From Enterobacteria phage vB_EcoM_IME341, in the sequence record MH051917: 64,000 nucleotides of DNA; one strand, given 5' to 3'. Below the pieces are notes generated by a model. The model saw nothing but the letters and a program-made list of their open reading frames with translations. It was not told where the DNA came from and searched no databases. This document shows positions 6,311 to 29,303 of the stretch, piece after piece. The translations under genes and the position numbers were made by a program. Within the stretch, counting starts at the first letter, position 1. Each line of letters starts with the position of its first letter.

Positions 6311-7194
<884 letters not shown>

Positions 7195-7205
7195 TTTAAA
7201 AAAGG

Positions 7206-7234
7206 TGTTTACAAGGTCTATAGGCATGATACTA
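7206..7234 (+). promoter_or_regulatory. early promoter cassette (GTTTAC -35, 17-bp spacer, TACTAT -10)
   Basis: gtttacaaggtctataggcatgatactatagacctatcaa; spacer contains inverted repeat aggtctatag/ctatagacct. Confidence 0.6.
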
Positions 7235-7272
7235 TAGACCTATCAAAACAAACTAACCAAACGGAAATCAAA

Positions 7273-7497
7273 ATGAAAACTTATCAAGAATTTATTACCG
7301 AAGCTAAAAAACACGAAGACCAACTGCCGGTTGTTACAAAAACCTTTGACGGTTCATTGGCTGATTTTAAAAAAGTCCCTAGTGATAAGCTCGCTAAATT
7401 GACCGGGAGCATCGGCGAAAAAGACGGCAAGGTCACATTTTCTGCTCAAGGCACCGCTAATCTTAAAAAACTTTTGAAAGCCGCTGGCGCTGAATAA
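7273..7497 (+). CDS. internal protein (IP) with capsid-targeting sequence
   Basis: N-terminus MKTYQEFITEAKK; 74 aa. Confidence 0.7.
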   Translation: MKTYQEFITEAKKHEDQLPVVTKTFDGSLADFKKVPSDKLAKLTGSIGEKDGKVTFSAQGTANLKKLLKAAGAE

Positions 7498-7499
7498 AA

Positions 7500-7772
7500 A
7501 TGAAAACATATCAAGAATTTATCGCTGAATCTATTCTTAATGAAGAAGTAAAAATTAACAAATCTGTTAAGACTATGATTGATAATATAAATCATCTCTA
7601 TAACATCGATTTGACTAATCATGTAACTTTAGGCAATAAGCGAAACTTTTTTGTATTTGATACTTCAGAACTCGACCAGAATCAAATTAACAATATTGAA
7701 CGTTTTGCTAATGAAAAAGGGCTGCGTCACGAAACGGCTGGTTATAAAAAGTATGCAATTTATTTAAAATAA
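7500..7772 (+). CDS. internal protein (IP) with capsid-targeting sequence
   Basis: N-terminus MKTYQEFIAESIL; 90 aa; tandem to previous IP. Confidence 0.7.
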   Translation: MKTYQEFIAESILNEEVKINKSVKTMIDNINHLYNIDLTNHVTLGNKRNFFVFDTSELDQNQINNIERFANEKGLRHETAGYKKYAIYLK

Positions 7773-7774
7773 TT

Positions 7775-7804
7775 GTTTACAACGGGCTCTAGTGATGGTA
7801 CTAT
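7775..7804 (+). promoter_or_regulatory. early promoter cassette
   Basis: gtttacaacgggctctagtgatggtactatagccctatcaa. Confidence 0.55.
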
Positions 7805-7840
7805 AGCCCTATCAAAACAAATGAGTGATTGGAGAATAAA

Positions 7841-8026
7841 ATGAAACGTTGTGAATTAATTAGAAATGTTACTGCACTGGCAGCCGTTACTGCTTTTGGC
7901 TTTAGTATGTTTGCAGGATTCATGCTCGATATGCTTTCAACTTCCGAGAATATAATCTCTTTAGTAGTGGCATTTTTAATTGGTTCAATCTCTTTCGTAA
8001 TGGATAAAATCTCTAAAGGTGAATAA
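7841..8026 (+). CDS. small membrane protein
   Basis: 61 aa from ATG after SD GGAG in the cassette 3' end; hydrophobic; ORF-track start 7829 is a TTG inside the shared leader. Confidence 0.55.
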   Translation: MKRCELIRNVTALAAVTAFGFSMFAGFMLDMLSTSENIISLVVAFLIGSISFVMDKISKGE

Positions 8027-8427
8027 TGAACGTTGAATATTATGTATATGCGGATTATGAAAATAACCCGTCTAAAGATGAAGATAACCGTTTAGGTGTT
8101 GATGCTTTTGACTCTCCTGCTGCAGCTTGGCAATGGGTTGAAAGTACTGATATCCCTTATCGTTATATTGAAGTGGTAGACCATGCAGGAAACAAGTATC
8201 CTAAGGAAGCATATATTCCTTCTGGAAAGGTAAATTTCCTTTTGTTCGCCGGTGACAACTATTATCCACGTGGTGGATACACTGACTTAATCGCAAAAGC
8301 TGCTACTGAAGATGAACTACGTAATATCATTAAAGATAACGAGAATAAGCCTTGTTACGGTTCTAATCGTTTTGACTGGTGGCAGATTGTTAATGCCAAT
8401 ACCCACACAATTGTAGACGAGGGTTAA
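8026..8427 (+). CDS. hypothetical protein
   Basis: 133 aa ORF, ATGA overlap with upstream gene. Confidence 0.5.
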   Translation: MNVEYYVYADYENNPSKDEDNRLGVDAFDSPAAAWQWVESTDIPYRYIEVVDHAGNKYPKEAYIPSGKVNFLLFAGDNYYPRGGYTDLIAKAATEDELRNIIKDNENKPCYGSNRFDWWQIVNANTHTIVDEG

Positions 8428-8712
8428 ATGCTATACGTTAAGGTTACTAATCCAGAGAATGGCTATAAATCCGATCAGGTTGCAGCTGAGTTGTTGATTC
8501 GCAATTATGGCAAAGATGCTGTTCTTGATGTTCAACAGGTTAATATAGGACGTAGTTCAAGCGATGTTAAGCTCAAAGTTAACAGCCATCGTTATAATTC
8601 TGTTAACTTTACTTTTTATACCGCAACTGAAAATGGATTGGTCGAATACGACATCTTTAAAAATCCTTTGAAGATTGCTTCTATTAAACTTGATTACATT
8701 AATATGCTTTAA
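8428..8712 (+). CDS. hypothetical protein
   Basis: 94 aa ORF directly abutting previous stop. Confidence 0.5.
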   Translation: MLYVKVTNPENGYKSDQVAAELLIRNYGKDAVLDVQQVNIGRSSSDVKLKVNSHRYNSVNFTFYTATENGLVEYDIFKNPLKIASIKLDYINML

Positions 8713-8815
8713 GAATTATGTGATATTATTACTCTATCATTAATACCCTCTATTACCAAAGGTTCTTCCCTCAAAGAATCTTTCATAATAGAATTAATCA
8801 ACTAATGAGGAAAAT

Positions 8816-9235
8816 ATGATTACTCCAATTCTTATCGATTTTAACAGCGAAACCTGGGAAAATCCAGAAATCGCTACAGAAGTATTTTATAACTGCCAAC
8901 CATCTGAAATTAACTATAATTGTTTTGACGGGAATTTAATCCGTATTTGGTTAAAATCTAAAGAACACTCGGCCCATATTGTGGCTACAGTCTGTGATGA
9001 CGAGTTATATGAAATGTGTTCCGGCGTAACAGAATTTGATGCCGATTTAATTGCTGGATGGTTATTCACTGTTTTATTTGAAGATGTTTGGTCACCAGGC
9101 GGTGAACAATTCTGTTTCAGCGAGTTTGGTAAAAAGTTAGGTGTTTTTTCTTCGGATGACACCAATTTTAATATTTCGCCTGATATTTGTGTACACTATG
9201 ATGGCCCTTCCGAAGGTTGGAATTGGTCTAGTTAA
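8816..9235 (+). CDS. hypothetical protein
   Basis: 139 aa ORF with SD GAGGAA upstream. Confidence 0.5.
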   Translation: MITPILIDFNSETWENPEIATEVFYNCQPSEINYNCFDGNLIRIWLKSKEHSAHIVATVCDDELYEMCSGVTEFDADLIAGWLFTVLFEDVWSPGGEQFCFSEFGKKLGVFSSDDTNFNISPDICVHYDGPSEGWNWSS

Positions 9236-9242
9236 GAATTAA

Positions 9243-9319
9243 GGCCCTGTAGCTCAATGGTTAGCAGCAGTCCCCTCATAAGGGAAAGGTTACCAGTTCA
9301 AATCTGGTCTGGGTCACCA
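9243..9319 (+). tRNA. tRNA with CAU anticodon (Met, or Ile2 lysidine-type)
   Basis: GGCCCTG acceptor, D-arm GCTCAATGGTTAGC, anticodon loop CTCATAA, T-arm ACCAG-TTCAAAT-CTGGT, 3' CCA; one acceptor mismatch. Confidence 0.7.
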
Positions 9320-9387
9320 ACTTTGATTAGGTAGAGCAGTCAACTTCTCCATGAATAAATATCTATATAAAATTCATGGAGAAAATT

Positions 9388-10047
9388 ATGCTTTGCCAAT
9401 ATTGTTCTAAAGAATGTAAAAACTTAAATTCACTAAAGCAACATGAAAAACGGTGCAAATCTAACCCAAATGGATTAGATATGAGCGGCCCTAATAACCC
9501 TCGTTTCGGTCTTAAAGGTGTCAATCAATTTACAAAAGCCAAAGAACTAGGTAAAGAAATAAAGGTTTCTGATAAAACCAGAGAAAAACTTAGAAAAGCC
9601 AATACAGGATATGTATGGTCTAATGAACGCAAAGAAGCACATTCTAAAAGAATGCGGCAAGCTGTTCTTGATAATCCTGATTCATATTCTGCTTCTAATG
9701 TTTCTGGTCGAGTAAAAACATATGAGTTTGACGGATTTAAATTTAAAGGGACTTGGGAATTAAAAGTTGCTAAGTTTTTAAAAGAACACAATATCAAATA
9801 TACTAATGAAATAAAGCCAATTCCTTACGAATGGGAAGGTTCAGAACATCTCTATTTTCCTGATTTTTATTTACCCACTTATGATTTTTATATAGAAGTC
9901 AAAGGATATAAAAGAGATAGAGACCTTTGTAAATGGAAAGCTTTAGAAAATTTGATAGTTTTAGAAAAAGATGAGATTTCCGATTTGTCTTGTCTTTTAA
10001 ATAAATTACGTCCCGCTGGTGTAATGGATAGCATACGATCCTTCTAA
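9388..10047 (+). CDS. putative freestanding homing-endonuclease-like protein
   Basis: N-terminal Cys cluster CQYCSKEC...HEKRC, NUMOD-like basic repeats, C-terminal PD-(D/E)xK-like FPDF...YIEVKG; inserted between tRNAs like seg genes in T4; ORF-track start 9376 lies inside a hairpin. Confidence 0.5.
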   Translation: MLCQYCSKECKNLNSLKQHEKRCKSNPNGLDMSGPNNPRFGLKGVNQFTKAKELGKEIKVSDKTREKLRKANTGYVWSNERKEAHSKRMRQAVLDNPDSYSASNVSGRVKTYEFDGFKFKGTWELKVAKFLKEHNIKYTNEIKPIPYEWEGSEHLYFPDFYLPTYDFYIEVKGYKRDRDLCKWKALENLIVLEKDEISDLSCLLNKLRPAGVMDSIRSF

Positions 10048-10084
10048 GTTTGCGGTCCTGGTTCGATCCCAGGGCGGGATACCA
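10010..10084 (+). tRNA. tRNA-Arg (anticodon UCU)
   Basis: Acceptor GTCCCGC/GCGGGAT, T-arm CCTGG-TTCGATC-CCAGG, anticodon loop with TCT, 3' CCA; first ~38 nt overlap the endonuclease ORF 3' end. Confidence 0.75.
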
Positions 10085-10342
10085 AATGAAGACTATTATA
10101 TAGTCAAGCCGTCGTATGAAGACTGATTGCCAGCATTCACCGGCGCAACAAACAAGAAACCGGGTCGCTACCGGTAAGTCGTCGGACTGAAGTTCTCTGG
10201 AGTATAGTTCCTCCCACAGTTGTACTGTGTTCTGGTTCTTTACTATCACAGCTGAAACGGCGCACCGAACACTTGCCTAGCAGGTGGAACCCCGACAAGG
10301 TTGCCGCAAGGCATAGCCCCTTCCGAAAGGTTGGGGCTTTTT
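10085..10342 (+). ncRNA. candidate structured small RNA(s) downstream of tRNAs
   Basis: About 260 nt without ORF, GC-richer than surroundings, ends in strong terminator; T4 encodes stable RNAs C/D of unknown function in its tRNA cluster. Confidence 0.3.
10315..10342 (+). terminator. intrinsic terminator
   Basis: agcccc-ttccgaaaggtt-ggggct followed by TTTTT. Confidence 0.65.
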
Positions 10343-10383
10343 GGCATAATAAATAGATAAGTTAATTAACTTAGGAAATAATA

Positions 10384-10848
10384 ATGAAAACTTACAATGA
10401 ATTTTTGACTGAACAATCTAGTTCAGATGTAAAAGCCGCTGCGATTGCAGCAATTCAAGCAGGTAAATATTCTTACAAAGACGCCTCTGATGAAGAACGT
10501 TTCCGTTTTATTAAAGATTTTAAAGCCGAAGGTTTTACTAATGCTAATACTGTTAGCCGAGTTTTTAAAAGCCTAGCTGCATCAGGTGAATTGTTCCAGA
10601 AAGCTACAGGTAAAGCACCTGCGCCAAAAGCGGACCCTAAAGCCGCTCAAGAAAAAAATATCGCCAAAGGAATTATTTCTAAGTATGAAGCAATTCTTAA
10701 AGAGCTTTTAGTAATCAAAACAGAAGGCCAGAAACTGGCACGGGCACATAGCTTCAAAGATAATCCGCATGCTCACGACTTAGAGTATGTTGAAGATATT
10801 CAGAAAATCATCAAAGACCGTATCTGGTCTGCTAAACAAATCAAATAA
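10384..10848 (+). CDS. internal-protein-like protein with capsid-targeting sequence
   Basis: N-terminus [11 protein letters not shown]; 154 aa; flanked by two near-identical terminators. Confidence 0.65.
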   Translation: MKTYNEFLTEQSSSDVKAAAIAAIQAGKYSYKDASDEERFRFIKDFKAEGFTNANTVSRVFKSLAASGELFQKATGKAPAPKADPKAAQEKNIAKGIISKYEAILKELLVIKTEGQKLARAHSFKDNPHAHDLEYVEDIQKIIKDRIWSAKQIK

Positions 10849-10852
10849 CGAA

Positions 10853-10872
10853 AGCCCCGTCTGGGGTTTTTT
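10853..10872 (+). terminator. weak intrinsic terminator
   Basis: cccc-gtct-gggg followed by TTTTTT. Confidence 0.4.
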
Positions 10873-10962
10873 GGTTAACTTAGAGAAATATATGAAACTT
10901 TTAAAATAAAGCTATGTTAGCCTTCCACATAAACCCATTCCGGTTCTACAAGAACTGATTCT

Positions 10963-10991
10963 AGGCCCTTCCGAAAGGTTGGGCCTTTTTT
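10963..10991 (+). terminator. intrinsic terminator (duplicate of the 10315 module)
   Basis: aggccc-ttccgaaaggtt-gggcct + TTTTTT; loop identical to 10315 terminator. Confidence 0.65.
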
Positions 10992-11014
10992 GTTTCTAAA
11001 AGTTTAAAAAAGTT

Positions 11015-11043
11015 GTTTACACCTCCTTTAAACATGATACTAT
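11015..11043 (+). promoter_or_regulatory. early promoter cassette
   Basis: gtttacacctcctttaaacatgatactatagacctatcaaaacaa. Confidence 0.6.
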
Positions 11044-11078
11044 AGACCTATCAAAACAACAGAGTGAAGGAGAGTAAA

Positions 11079-11342
11079 ATGGATAATTATGGTGAATTGT
11101 TTAATTTCTTTATGAAATGCGTTCCTGAAGAATTTGGTGCTACTGTTAACGATATTAAGGTTATAGGTGACGACCATCCTATATTTGAAACGTATGCAGT
11201 AATGGGTAATGATGATGGCCAGTGGTATACCGTAAAGGTTGTGGTTAATATGTTTGCCGCCGAAGGTTATGTTAAATTGTCTACCAAAGTTTATCATGAT
11301 AACGATTTTGATGCGGAAGAGTATTTCAATAATATGAAATAA
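11079..11342 (+). CDS. hypothetical protein
   Basis: 87 aa from ATG after SD GGAG; ORF-track start 11064 is GTG in the leader. Confidence 0.5.
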   Translation: MDNYGELFNFFMKCVPEEFGATVNDIKVIGDDHPIFETYAVMGNDDGQWYTVKVVVNMFAAEGYVKLSTKVYHDNDFDAEEYFNNMK

Positions 11343-11344
11343 TT

Positions 11345-11374
11345 GTTTACATGGGCTCATGATTAAGATATTAT
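11345..11374 (+). promoter_or_regulatory. early promoter (GTTTAC / TATTAT) with flanking inverted repeat
   Basis: gtttacatgggctcatgattaagatattatgagcccat; arms atgggctcat / atgagcccat. Confidence 0.5.
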
Positions 11375-11399
11375 GAGCCCATAATTTGAGGAGAACATA

Positions 11400-11798
11400 A
11401 TGAATATCGAAGATAAAGAAATGCAAGAGTTGTACAATTCATTAACGCCTGAACAACAAAAAGCTGCCAAAGAATTAGAGAAAGCTCTTACTTTCAACTT
11501 GGCAAAAACTGATTGGGCTGCCATGTATGAAGAAAAAACTAGATTAGAACTTGAAGCGGTCGAGAGAAATGAATGGATTGTCGAAACCAAGATTTCTGAT
11601 GGTGGTTGCTCTGTTGAGGTGTCAGCTGTAGTTAAAGGTACCCATGGCGAAAAATCATGGGGCTGGCATAATGAGACAAACAAATATATTGTTCTCTCAA
11701 CGTCAAAAACTTATGGCCAAAGGGCTCCTGTATCCAAAGCTATTATTAAGCAAGCTCAATGGGAAGCCAATGAAATCTGCCTCGCAAAAATGAAATAA
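11400..11798 (+). CDS. hypothetical protein
   Basis: 132 aa, SD GAGGAG upstream. Confidence 0.5.
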   Translation: MNIEDKEMQELYNSLTPEQQKAAKELEKALTFNLAKTDWAAMYEEKTRLELEAVERNEWIVETKISDGGCSVEVSAVVKGTHGEKSWGWHNETNKYIVLSTSKTYGQRAPVSKAIIKQAQWEANEICLAKMK

Positions 11799-11801
11799 AA
11801 T

Positions 11802-11831
11802 GTTTACATCCCTCAGAGGACAGGGTATAAT
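11802..11831 (+). promoter_or_regulatory. early promoter (GTTTAC / TATAAT) with inverted repeat
   Basis: gtttacatccctcagaggacagggtataatgtcctc. Confidence 0.55.
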
Positions 11832-11873
11832 GTCCTCATGGATTATAAATCTTAACCAACTGAAGGAAATACT

Positions 11874-12467
11874 ATGAACACTTTAAAGAAAATCGTTGAA
11901 TTCATCCGTTCTAAACTGGGTACTGCAATGGCTCAGAACCTGTCAATCGAAGACCAGTATACTAAAGCTGCTTCTACCCTGATTGATAAAATCACTGAAC
12001 TCCAGACTGCTCATGTTAAGTCTGTGAATGAAGAAAAACGTATTCGGGCGTTGGCTAATGAAAAAGACCAGCTTGCTGCTTCTAAAGAACGTGAAATTCG
12101 TAAACTGATTGCCGAAGGCGCTGATGTCCAGGTACATGCTAAACTCGGCCTCCTTTATCGTCGTACGGCTACTCAGCTTCGTAAGAAAGCCGATGATTAT
12201 ATCGAAATGCGTAATGAAATTAAACTGAAGGTCAAGGAACTTGATGACTCTCGTCAGGAACTGGCTGTTAAGCTCGAGTACATCCGTGAAACTCGTAATA
12301 TGGCTGCCCTTGGTATTGCTACTGCCGATGATGTTGTTGAAATCGCTGCACTGACTAAGATTGATATTGAAGATACCCTGCTGCGTGTAGAAACGTTTAA
12401 AGGCCCACAGGTTGGAATGGATACGACTTCTGCTGATATCGACGACTACATTAATTCACTTAAGTAA
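11874..12467 (+). CDS. coiled-coil protein, tentatively PspA/IM30-like
   Basis: 197 aa, long predicted helices rich in E/K/R/A/L; family assignment not verified. Confidence 0.5.
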
Positions 12468-16492: not shown

Positions 16493-16521
16493 GTTTACAA
16501 GGTCTATAGGCATGATACTAT
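16493..16521 (+). promoter_or_regulatory. early promoter cassette
   Basis: gtttacaaggtctataggcatgatactatagacctatcaaaacaa, identical to the 7206 copy. Confidence 0.6.
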
Positions 16522-16558
16522 AGACCTATCAAAACAACAGAGTGAAATGGAGAATAAA

Positions 16559-18764: not shown

Positions 18765-19259
18765 ATGGATATTTTTGATATGTTACGTCAAGACGAAGGT
18801 CTTGATTTAAATCTTTATAAAGACACCGAAGGTTATTGGACTATTGGGATTGGCCAGTTGATTACCAAAAACCCTTCAAAAGATGTTGCTCGTGCCGAAC
18901 TTGATAAGCTTATGGGCCGGGTTTGCAACGGTCGTATTACTATGGCTGAAGCTGAACAACTCTTTAACCGATCGGTTGAAAATGCTCGTAGAGCTATTCT
19001 GCGTAATCCTAAATTGAAACCTGTTTATGATGTACTGGACGAAGTTCGTCGTTGTGCTTTAATTAACATGGTCTTCCAGATGGGTGAAGCAGGTGTAGCT
19101 GGGTTCACTAACTCTTTACGTATGCTCCAACAGAAACGTTGGGACGATGCGGCAGTTAACCTGGCTCAATCCCGTTGGTATAAACAAACTCCTAATCGTG
19201 CTAAGCGCGTGATTTCAACATTTAAAACAGGTACTTGGAAAGCATATGAAAACTTATAA
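18765..19259 (+). CDS. e: endolysin (T4 lysozyme, gene e)
   Basis: 164 aa; [54 protein letters not shown]; highly similar to T4 lysozyme. Confidence 0.95.
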
Positions 19260-19548
19260 TGAATTTATCACTGAAGCCCGCGTAACCGCAGGTAAATTAG
19301 AAGCCGCTGTAAATAAAAAGGCCCATTCATTTCATGATTTGCCAGATAAAGACCGTAAGAAACTTGTAAGCCTTTATATTGACAAAGAGCGTATTCTCGC
19401 TCTCCCGGGCGCTAATGAAGGTAAACAGGCCAAGCCTTTGAATTCTGTCGAAAAGAAAATTGATAACTTTGCTTCTAAGTTTGGTATGTCTATGGATGAC
19501 CTTCAGCAAGCGGCTACCGAAGCAGCTAAAGCAATTAAAGGTAAATAA
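19246..19548 (+). CDS. internal protein (ipII/ipIII-like) with capsid-targeting sequence
   Basis: N-terminus [13 protein letters not shown]; 100 aa; between e and denV where T4 has ipIII/ipII. Confidence 0.7.
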
Positions 19549-20067: not shown

Positions 20068-20367
20068 ATGAAAACTTATCAAGAATTTATTACAGAAGCC
20101 AAAGCTCCTAAAGCATTTCAAATTGGAGTTCAAGGCAATTTAGACCAAGAATATGTTGATGCTATTGTAGCAAGCCTCGGTAAACAGGGTGTACAAGTGG
20201 ATTTTGTTGATTTTACCAAAGGTAATACTTTTAATATTGTTACATCTAAAGGTTCTTTAGCTAAAGTTAAAAAGGCCTTTGGCGTAGCACAAGCATATGA
20301 AATCGACCACTCCGAATTGGAAAATAAAGGTCGCCAGAACACAATTAAAGGTTCTGGTTCTTTCTAA
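20068..20367 (+). CDS. internal-protein-like protein with capsid-targeting sequence
   Basis: N-terminus MKTYQEFITEAKAP; 99 aa. Confidence 0.65.
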   Translation: MKTYQEFITEAKAPKAFQIGVQGNLDQEYVDAIVASLGKQGVQVDFVDFTKGNTFNIVTSKGSLAKVKKAFGVAQAYEIDHSELENKGRQNTIKGSGSF

Positions 20368-29226: not shown

Positions 29227-29255
29227 GTTTACAACCTCGTAGAGCATGATACTAT
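29227..29255 (+). promoter_or_regulatory. early promoter cassette
   Basis: gtttacaacctcgtagagcatgatactatagacctatcaaataa. Confidence 0.6.
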
Positions 29256-29303
29256 AGACCTATCAAATAAATGAACTGAAACAACTTAAAACGGAGATAC
29301 AAA

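Follow-up and report, generated by a model that had tools for sequence, protein, structure and literature searches.

A two-cassette array with one deleted gene in a variable slot between the small-RNA unit and e.8 of a Dhakavirus-type phage

The DNA between the small-RNA unit and e.8 in the window, the whole 64,000-nt (64-kb) stretch of Enterobacteria phage vB_EcoM_IME341 that was analysed, is best read as an array of two cassettes in a hyperplastic slot at which copies of a junction block recombine, a reading that we give a probability of about 0.85. The first cassette carries an intact gene of the internal-protein (IP) type, IP154, presumably transcribed from a near-consensus late promoter, and the second is a former DUF7338 membrane-protein gene, destroyed by a single illegitimate deletion of 488 nt. 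The predicted terminators designated T1, T1′ and the shorter T2, together with the look-alike leaders, would all belong to a single family of repeated junction blocks, each consisting of a hairpin terminator, a promoter and a ribosome-binding leader, to which IP genes add capsid-targeting codons. Throughout Tequatrovirus, Mosigvirus and Dhakavirus, the cassettes present in the slot appear to be divided by such blocks, and homologous recombination among the block copies would then result in the gain, loss or swapping of a cassette. The features of the slot in the window are listed in Table 1.

The phage is a T4-like phage of the Dhakavirus type, with top matches to fDHCT2, UGJNEcP3, WG01, QL01 and PSD2002, and the plus strand of the window has the gene order of the T4 minus strand, namely IP genes, trna.4, trna.3, trna.2, tRNAs, small RNAs, e.8 and e.6. 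A homologue of rnaD is present in the small stable RNA region whereas rnaC is absent, ~146 nt having been lost at positions 10268-10269, and none of the listed phage records has this junction as a single contiguous piece. A search of Rfam at a permissive E-value over positions 8500-11500 identified two tRNAs and nothing else. As neither rnaD nor rnaC has a match to any Rfam family, their assignment as small RNAs leans on the alignment with T4 and on the annotation of RB68. This region is most likely an upstream transcription unit ended by the predicted terminator T1. On the other side of the slot, e.8 is preceded by a predicted early promoter, and the promoter/5′-UTR repeat, GATACTATAGACCTATCAAAACAA, is present in five copies in the 64-kb window. 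The corresponding T4 DNA (NC_000866, 70624-70907), from the rnaC terminator to the e.8 early promoter, is ~285 nt long and gene-free. The terminator, TAGCCCCGACCGAAAGGTTGGGGCTTTTTGG, the sequence upstream of it and the e.8 early promoter are all the same in T4 and in the window, but the T4 site is empty whereas in the window cassette DNA of ~620 nt separates the terminator copy from the promoter, and rnaC, present in T4, is missing.

Table 1. Features of the slot and its flanks in the window, with their positions and the evidence for each
Feature	Position	Strand	Evidence
Small stable RNA region, 3′ of tRNA-Arg	10085-10314	+	Alignment to T4 rnaD/rnaC and fDHCT2/UGJNEcP3
Terminator T1 (predicted), AGCCCC-UU-CC-GAAA-GG-UU-GGGGCU then U5	10315-10342	+	Fold -18.2 kcal/mol, z -2.67
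Late-promoter-like box, AATAAATA	10348-10355	+	7/8 match to T4 late consensus TATAAATA; putative function
Leader/ribosome-binding block copy 1, TTAACTTAGGAAATAATA, 5′ of IP154	10366-10383	+	Homologous to T4 ipI and JS98, IME08 and WG01 leaders
IP154, 154-aa internal-protein-type gene; capsid targeting sequence is codons 1-10 (10384-10413)	10384-10848	+	ORF, alignment, phrog matches
Terminator T2 (predicted), AAAGCCCC-GUCU-GGGGUUU within U6 run	10851-10872	+	Fold -13.4 kcal/mol
Leader/ribosome-binding block copy 2, TTAACTTAGAGAAATAT, DUF7338 leader	10875-10891	+	Alignment to relatives
Stump ORF (mini-ORF), ATG AAA CTT TTA AAA TAA (MKLLK*), DUF7338 codons 1-5	10892-10909	+	Alignment to intact relatives
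Deletion junction, TA microhomology at both breakpoints	10907-10908		BLAST segments overlap at 10907-10908; alignment
DUF7338 3′ remnant, last 16 codons KAMLAFHINPFRFYKN plus TGA at 10956-10958; now untranslated	10909-10958	+	Alignment
Terminator T1′ (predicted), AGGCCC...GGGCCU then U6	10963-10991	+	Fold -16.0 kcal/mol, z -3.34
e.8 early promoter (predicted), TTTACA, 16-nt spacer, TACTAT, with TG	11016-11043	+	Promoter scan; T4 homologue
e.8 homologue, 87 aa, conserved right flank of slot	11079-11342	+	phrog_2678; T4 annotation; 82% nt identity to T4 e.8

The occupancy of the slot was surveyed in relatives by inspecting in detail a sample of ~15 loci out of ~700 matching records, together with BLAST counts. 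The arrangement is highly variable, so the invariant organization with an intact small ORF that would have spoken against the cassette exchange suggested in an earlier note on this DNA was not seen. In RB68, rnaC is followed by T1, TATAAATA, IP157, a further T1 and a T4-like downstream flank, and so by one cassette. The T4 slot has one T1 and is otherwise empty; as there is exactly one T1 within the same outer flanks as in RB68, T4 is an empty site, equivalent to RB68 without its cassette, with the junction located within a T1 repeat of ~38 nt. Among the Dhakavirus genomes, ABTNLS3 provides an empty site, the DNA from rnaC to the e.8 promoter having just one T1′. There is one cassette in IME08 (T1′, TATAAATA, IP205) and there are two in JS98 (T1′, TATAAATA, DUF7338, T1′, TATAAATA, IP205), two in WG01 and two in PhAPEC2 (T1, IP154, T1, IP187 and a terminator). 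In RPN187, T1 and IP154 are followed by a T1 with a variant loop and an unrelated gene of 167 aa. IME08 corresponds to JS98 without the DUF7338 cassette, and here the junction is within a ~36-nt repeat, GGCCCTTCCGAAAGGTTGGGCCTTTTT(T)GTATAAATA, that comprises T1′ and TATAAATA. Repeats that flank an insertion, deletion or replacement and have the breakpoint inside them are therefore documented by T4 and RB68, by ABTNLS3, IME08 and JS98, and by WG01 and JS98. As read from these alignments, the slot is a cassette array, and the breakpoints examined between empty and occupied sites are inside the repeated blocks of terminator, late promoter and leader. Others may lie outside such blocks, as the breakpoint of the 488-nt deletion does.

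T1 is the homologue of the T4 terminator located 3′ of rnaC and is the left boundary block of the array. T1′ is the JS98, IME08 and ABTNLS3 allele of T1, with 31 nt at 100% identity to the JS98 and IME08 copies, and is both the end of the DUF7338 cassette and the right boundary of the array. The two constitute a 29-nt direct repeat, identical at 27 of the 29 positions (93%), and the exact 16-mer core, CCTTCCGAAAGGTTGG, is present at these two sites only in the 64 kb, where 0.04 are expected. Both fold into a stem, a UU-UU internal loop and CC-GAAA-GG, and where they differ (GCCCC/GGGGC versus GGCCC/GGGCC) the change is a compensatory pair in the outer stem. T2 is positioned directly 3′ of the IP154 stop codon, has short-loop arms that are T1-like and forms the right end of the IP154 unit; in fDHCT2, PSD2002, WG01 and UGJNEcP3, the stem of T2 is kept and the loop is variable. 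A simple promoter/terminator scan listed none of T1, T2 and T1′, and they were folded directly instead. All three have the stable GC-rich hairpin and U-run of an intrinsic terminator (z of -2.7 to -3.3, 5-6 T each), consistent with the predicted termination, and the homologous hairpin in PhAPEC2 carries an ARNold terminator annotation. The stems of T1 and T1′ are interrupted by an internal loop, and T2 has part of its tail taken up in its own stem. Across 13 genomes, 23 T1-type copies were catalogued; the inner sequence, CCGAAAGGTTGG, is invariant in all save one, and the copies fall into two outer-stem alleles linked by a compensatory change. The earlier note had placed the IP gene between duplicated terminators. 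The duplication stands, T1 and T1′ being a real repeat, but with T2 intervening directly after IP154 the gene is not simply bracketed by the look-alike pair, and T1′ belongs to the neighbouring deleted gene, DUF7338.

The second component of the blocks is the late-promoter box and leader. Relatives have a perfect TATAAATA at the position aligned to AATAAATA in the window, and that the IP154 box here is AATAAATA, not the canonical TATAAATA, counts against the main reading. The leader and start of IP154 have 83% identity to T4 ipI over 42 nt, and the JS98 version of the DUF7338 leader, CTAACTTAGGAAATAAT, is even nearer than that of the window to the IP leader. In the window, the terminator tail and ribosome-binding leader are repeated, with the copies 509 nt apart. 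As the copies differ by indels, this repeat was missed by a repeat search and a gapped pattern was used. By itself, TTAACTTAG is not significant in the window (2 matches versus 0.93 expected, with 23% of shuffles reaching 2); the composite TTTTTGG-N(0-25)-TTAACTTAG, a pattern picked post hoc, is present only at the two leader sites, with 0 expected. The evidence that the leaders are homologous comes from the sequences of relatives.

The 154-aa gene recognized as IP-like in the earlier note is present as an ORF, and both its targeting sequence and its profile matches (phrog_2280, E 8e-54; phrog_7857, 'internal virion protein', E 7e-4) are those of an IP. A search of Pfam found nothing significant and a search of the PDB by sequence found no relative. 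IP154 begins MKTYN, resembling T4 IPII and IPIII, which start MKTYQEFIAE, and six ORFs in the window, IP154 and five others, start MKTY[NQ]EF[IL][TA]E. In an alignment of 12 IPs that includes T4 IPI, IPII and IPIII, there is no variation at M1, K2, E6 and F7 and next to none at T3, Y4 and E10. Positions 4 and 7 are critical for capsid targeting, and positions 8 and 10, in the motif L/I-X-E, for processing (PMC9026906). Y4 and F7 are conserved in IP154 and residues 8-10 are L-T-E, with cleavage by the prohead protease (gp21) predicted. The protein is small and basic, with 22 K and 5 R, its mature part having a pI of 9.5. Its identity to other IPs, 17-31%, is confined to the N-terminus and the proteins are otherwise unrelated; IP154 and IP205 both begin with ATGAAAACTTACAATGAATTTTTGA, 25 identical nt of capsid-targeting codons. 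Judged by these features, IP154 is a genuine IP-type gene. Its product would enter the prohead by means of the 10-residue targeting sequence, be cut after L-T-E by the prohead protease and be injected alongside the DNA, probably as a counter-defence factor. IP154 homologues are present in 509 phage records, all annotated as hypothetical, with ~70 at ≥90% identity (Dhakavirus, Mosigvirus) and ~400 at 60-80% (Tequatrovirus, for example RB68). IP154 was not identifiable among the tested ip4-10 genes in the supplements of PMC12373910.

As also pointed out in the earlier note, TTAACTTAG recurs downstream of IP154. It begins 27 nt past the stop codon, and the next sequence, ATGAAACTTTTAAAATAA, consists of 5 sense codons and a stop. 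The correct coordinates of the mini-ORF are those in Table 1. In UGJNEcP3, WG01, ABTNLsp5 and JS98, the same leader, first 16 nt, 3′ 50 nt and terminator belong to an intact gene of 555 nt encoding 184 aa. The UGJNEcP3 homologue is a full-length DUF7338 (PF24027; E 6e-63, profile positions 1-179 of 180; phrog_2143), and the DUF7338 protein, a membrane protein to which some annotations give the name holin, has a hydrophobic N-terminus. Relative to these genes, the window has an internal deletion of 488 nt with a 2-nt TA microhomology, the junction reading AAAA[TA]AAGC, and 16 5′-terminal nt and ~50 3′-terminal nt of the gene survive together with its terminator. There is no match in the window to the full-length DUF7338 profile, as nothing but codons 1-5 and the final 16 codons is left, out of frame, and the stump ends in TAA because the deletion, 488 not being a multiple of three, shifted the frame. 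Slipped mispairing between the TAAAAT repeats near both breakpoints was considered and rejected, as it predicts AAAATCCCTAAGG and the sequence observed is AAAATAAAGC. Since the intact DUF7338 of relatives spans the stump through to the 3′ remnant, the mini-ORF is, on this alignment, a pseudogene fragment of DUF7338, which is not an IP gene, rather than a copy of the 5′-end of IP154. In the phage collection, the junction exists as a single contiguous piece in fDHCT2 and PSD2002 only, and it is absent from the IMG/VR viral contigs searched. The alignments indicate a single illegitimate deletion event, afterwards inherited or spread. The DUF7338 gene is intact at the slot in 38 phage records, and the family is represented in 593 phage records, 564 of them full length, from Felixounaviruses, Slopek-like and other unrelated groups. 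No mention of DUF7338 was found in the literature.

The earlier note had interpreted the mini-ORF differently, as a shortened second copy of the leader and 5′-end of IP154 itself, left by recombination through conserved IP 5′-ends. The similarity of the leaders is real and IP genes do share ~25 nt of identical capsid-targeting codons, but the stump encodes MKLLK, not MKTYN, and the coding parts of IP154 and of the stump are similar in ATGAAA only. The stump is instead colinear with the first 16 nt of DUF7338 in all 38 records with the intact gene, the next 50 nt are the DUF7338 3′-end, and the 12-IP alignment and the Pfam match do not suggest that the DUF7338 N-terminus came from a capsid-targeting sequence, all of which makes a duplicate of IP154 extremely improbable. 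With its ribosome-binding leader and ATG intact, and the same structure in three genomes, the short ORF might have been kept by selection after the loss of DUF7338, as a leader peptide or as a translational-coupling or regulatory mini-ORF. The three genomes are, however, close relatives with one shared deletion, so this conservation is uninformative; there is nothing to regulate between the mini-ORF and T1′ and the stop codon was made by the deletion frameshift, and we consider a retained function highly improbable. It is also formally conceivable, although with nothing else in its favour, that the window represents the ancestral state and that the 184-aa gene of relatives arose via an insertion into a small ORF. 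Given that DUF7338 is a family so widespread in full-length form and that both DUF7338 termini are kept in the window, in the right order and in their original frames, this order of events is vanishingly improbable.

A separate question is whether T1 and T1′ could be convergent intrinsic terminators with no role or history in recombination. GC-rich hairpins followed by a T-run are common, and the compensatory change points to selection on structure. Convergence is nevertheless very unlikely, as the exact core shared by the two, so rare in the window, includes the unpaired UU/UU and the GAAA loop, T1-type copies are present at every cassette boundary in the 13 genomes, and the junctions of the empty/occupied pairs fall inside the terminators. 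The two-cassette array, with IP154 and a deleted DUF7338 gene, is therefore the reading that we prefer. The footprint of cassette exchange described in the earlier note is retained in that this is a cassette site with exchange in terminator and leader blocks, but the mini-ORF offered as its trace was made by the separate microhomology deletion.

There is also evidence for exchange within the lineage of this phage. The window is 99.6% identical to IME08 over positions 8329-8797 and 98.8% over 11003-12100, but positions 10149-10875 (rnaD, T1 and IP154, to T2) have only 79-83% identity to IME08 and JS98, where alignable, versus 93-97% to the Mosigvirus genomes RPN187 and PhAPEC2. This Mosigvirus-like similarity stops at T2. 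The IP154 5′ block is of the T-even/Mosigvirus type in the window, fDHCT2, UGJNEcP3 and ABTNLsp5, and of the JS98 DUF7338 type (T1′, TATAAATA and AGTAAACTAACTTAGGAAATAAT) in WG01 and PSD2002. As DUF7338 in JS98 and IP154 in WG01 and PSD2002 have one and the same 5′ block in front of them, crossovers in the leader/5′-end do occur. The 509-nt IP154 unit has a copy of the leader on each side both in the window and in genomes of the WG01 type, an arrangement that would be generated by a leader-bearing cassette crossing once into the leader of a resident DUF7338. The joint between T2 and the leader may have originated by short-homology joining, not by homologous recombination.

Cassette variation of this type has precedents. 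At the T-even ipI and ipII/ipIII loci, as presented in later summaries of Repoila et al. 1994 (PMC2839356, PMC3012670, PMC12373910), unrelated small proteins have a shared N-terminal leader of ~10 residues, the number, order and identity of the ORFs vary among close relatives, and the conserved 5′ and 3′ blocks carry transcription and translation signals, with the variation attributed to recombination in these blocks. The rnaC-e.8 slot has the same targeting leader, conserved blocks and variable ORF content. It is, however, a third position, empty in T4 and separated by ~2.6 kb from the ipI locus, which has three IP genes at 6985-7772 in the window. Its block combines a late promoter and the shared leader with a strong, GC-rich terminator, and its array also includes a non-IP gene, DUF7338. 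PeSL (promoter-early stem-loop) repeats flank indels and replacements of small accessory ORFs, the proposed mechanism being homologous recombination between the repeats (PMC2839356, PMC4122927), and this explanation of indels in T4-type hyperplastic regions is established (Arbiol et al. 2010, PMC2839356; Comeau et al. 2014, PMC4122927). T1′ and the e.8 early promoter together are PeSL-like, a stem-loop next to an early promoter, with the promoter repeated five times in the window, but in the blocks that precede cassettes here the hairpin is accompanied by a late-type TATAAATA/AATAAATA box and the shared leader, and the hairpin is slot-specific, present twice in 64 kb. No paper was found on the rnaC-e.8 slot or on the IP154 family; the 1994 study of IP loci is known through later summaries only, so an earlier description is possible.

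In one respect, this case is a further example of the known plasticity of IP loci and of PeSL-type shuffling, clear but expected, and, with the general mechanism already known, it adds little conceptually. It does correct a tempting misreading, the mini-ORF being a pseudogene stump and not an IP recombination footprint, and it shows with unusual clarity one accessory slot in its empty, singly occupied and doubly occupied states, in three genera and with junctions at the nucleotide level. A more far-reaching possibility, to which we give slightly less than an even chance, is that the slot is a third, so far undescribed IP locus, at which a late-promoter analogue of PeSL (T1 hairpin, TATAAATA and shared leader) mobilizes cassettes, and that the IP154 family, which ~470 phage genomes have and T4 lacks, acts as an injected counter-defence protein. 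IP154 and IP157 belong to a widespread family of the capsid-targeted type that has no T4 counterpart and, the T4 model lacking both, has remained unnamed. T4 Ip2 and Ip3 were recently found to inhibit specific GmrSD type IV restriction enzymes (PMC12373910), which makes it reasonable to consider the IP154/IP157 family as a further candidate factor that is injected to act against host defence.

As judged by alignment, the window backbone (8329-8797, 10149-10875 and 11003-12100) is a mosaic. The flanks, 8329-8797 and 11003-12100, are about 99% identical to the related Dhakavirus-type phage IME08 whereas the content of the slot between rnaC and e.8 (10149-10875) resembles Mosigvirus/WG01. fDHCT2, although the top match for the slot, has just 81% identity over 7800-8792. 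The IME08 alignment ends at 8797, at the site of a 139-aa ORF that appears to be a further variable insertion. In fDHCT2, UGJNEcP3 and ABTNLS3, just 5 nt lie between tRNA-Met and tRNA-Arg; in the window, these genes are separated by a 223-aa endonuclease-like ORF, with a weak Phage_endo_I match, whose final 38 nt overlap tRNA-Arg (10010-10084). The position of this ORF is that of T4 segB, a GIY-YIG homing endonuclease, but the two belong to different families.

Immediately upstream of the slot, the window lacks a homologue of rnaC (species 1 RNA). With 10085-10314 as context, ~146 nt, present in T4, RB68, fDHCT2, UGJNEcP3 and ABTNLS3, have been lost at 10268-10269, a junction with a 2-nt AA microhomology. 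This junction was not found as a single contiguous piece among the phage records listed, and the loss may therefore be specific to vB_EcoM_IME341. Divergence is also seen in the middle of the rnaD homologue (about 10204-10240).

The look-alike terminator T1′ is not strictly limited to the slot, as several Dhakaviruses, including other JS98-like genomes, carry exact 32-nt copies beside uvsW/DNA helicase, in a region beyond the 64-kb window. In the record of phage 04086 (OR842557), the segment containing T1, the leader and the 5′-part of IP154, the internal protein (IP) gene of the slot, is present twice (1971-2240). The first copy contains ambiguous bases. The apparent tandem duplication is probably not real but an artefact of assembly.

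Five more ORFs in the window have a capsid-targeting leader, a tandem trio and a pair, one of which closely matches T4 IPII in an alignment of 12 IPs. Together with IP154, these therefore bring the total to six IP genes in three loci.

Locations of terminator copies, ORFs and repeats
Feature	Coordinates	Genome or strand	Remarks
T1′ copy	115605-115636	IME08 HM071924	by uvsW
T1′ copy	124146-124177	Bp7 HQ829472	by uvsW
IP-type trio	6985-7194, 7273-7497, 7500-7772		ipI position, upstream of trna.4
IP-type pair	19246-19548 (IPII match), 20068-20367		ipII/ipIII position
139-aa ORF	8816-9235		between trna.2 and tRNA-Met
223-aa endonuclease-like ORF	9376-10047		between tRNA-Met and tRNA-Arg; phrog_15137, E 6e-40
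GATACTATAGACCTATCAAAACAA repeat	7228-7251, 7797-7820, 11036-11059, 16514-16537, 29248-29271	+	

The early-promoter/5′-UTR repeat GATACTATAGACCTATCAAAACAA is present in five copies, all on the + strand of the window and with 0-2 mismatches, where none is expected by chance. These resemble PeSLs, the promoter-early stem-loop repeats of T4-type phages, and could mediate larger rearrangements.
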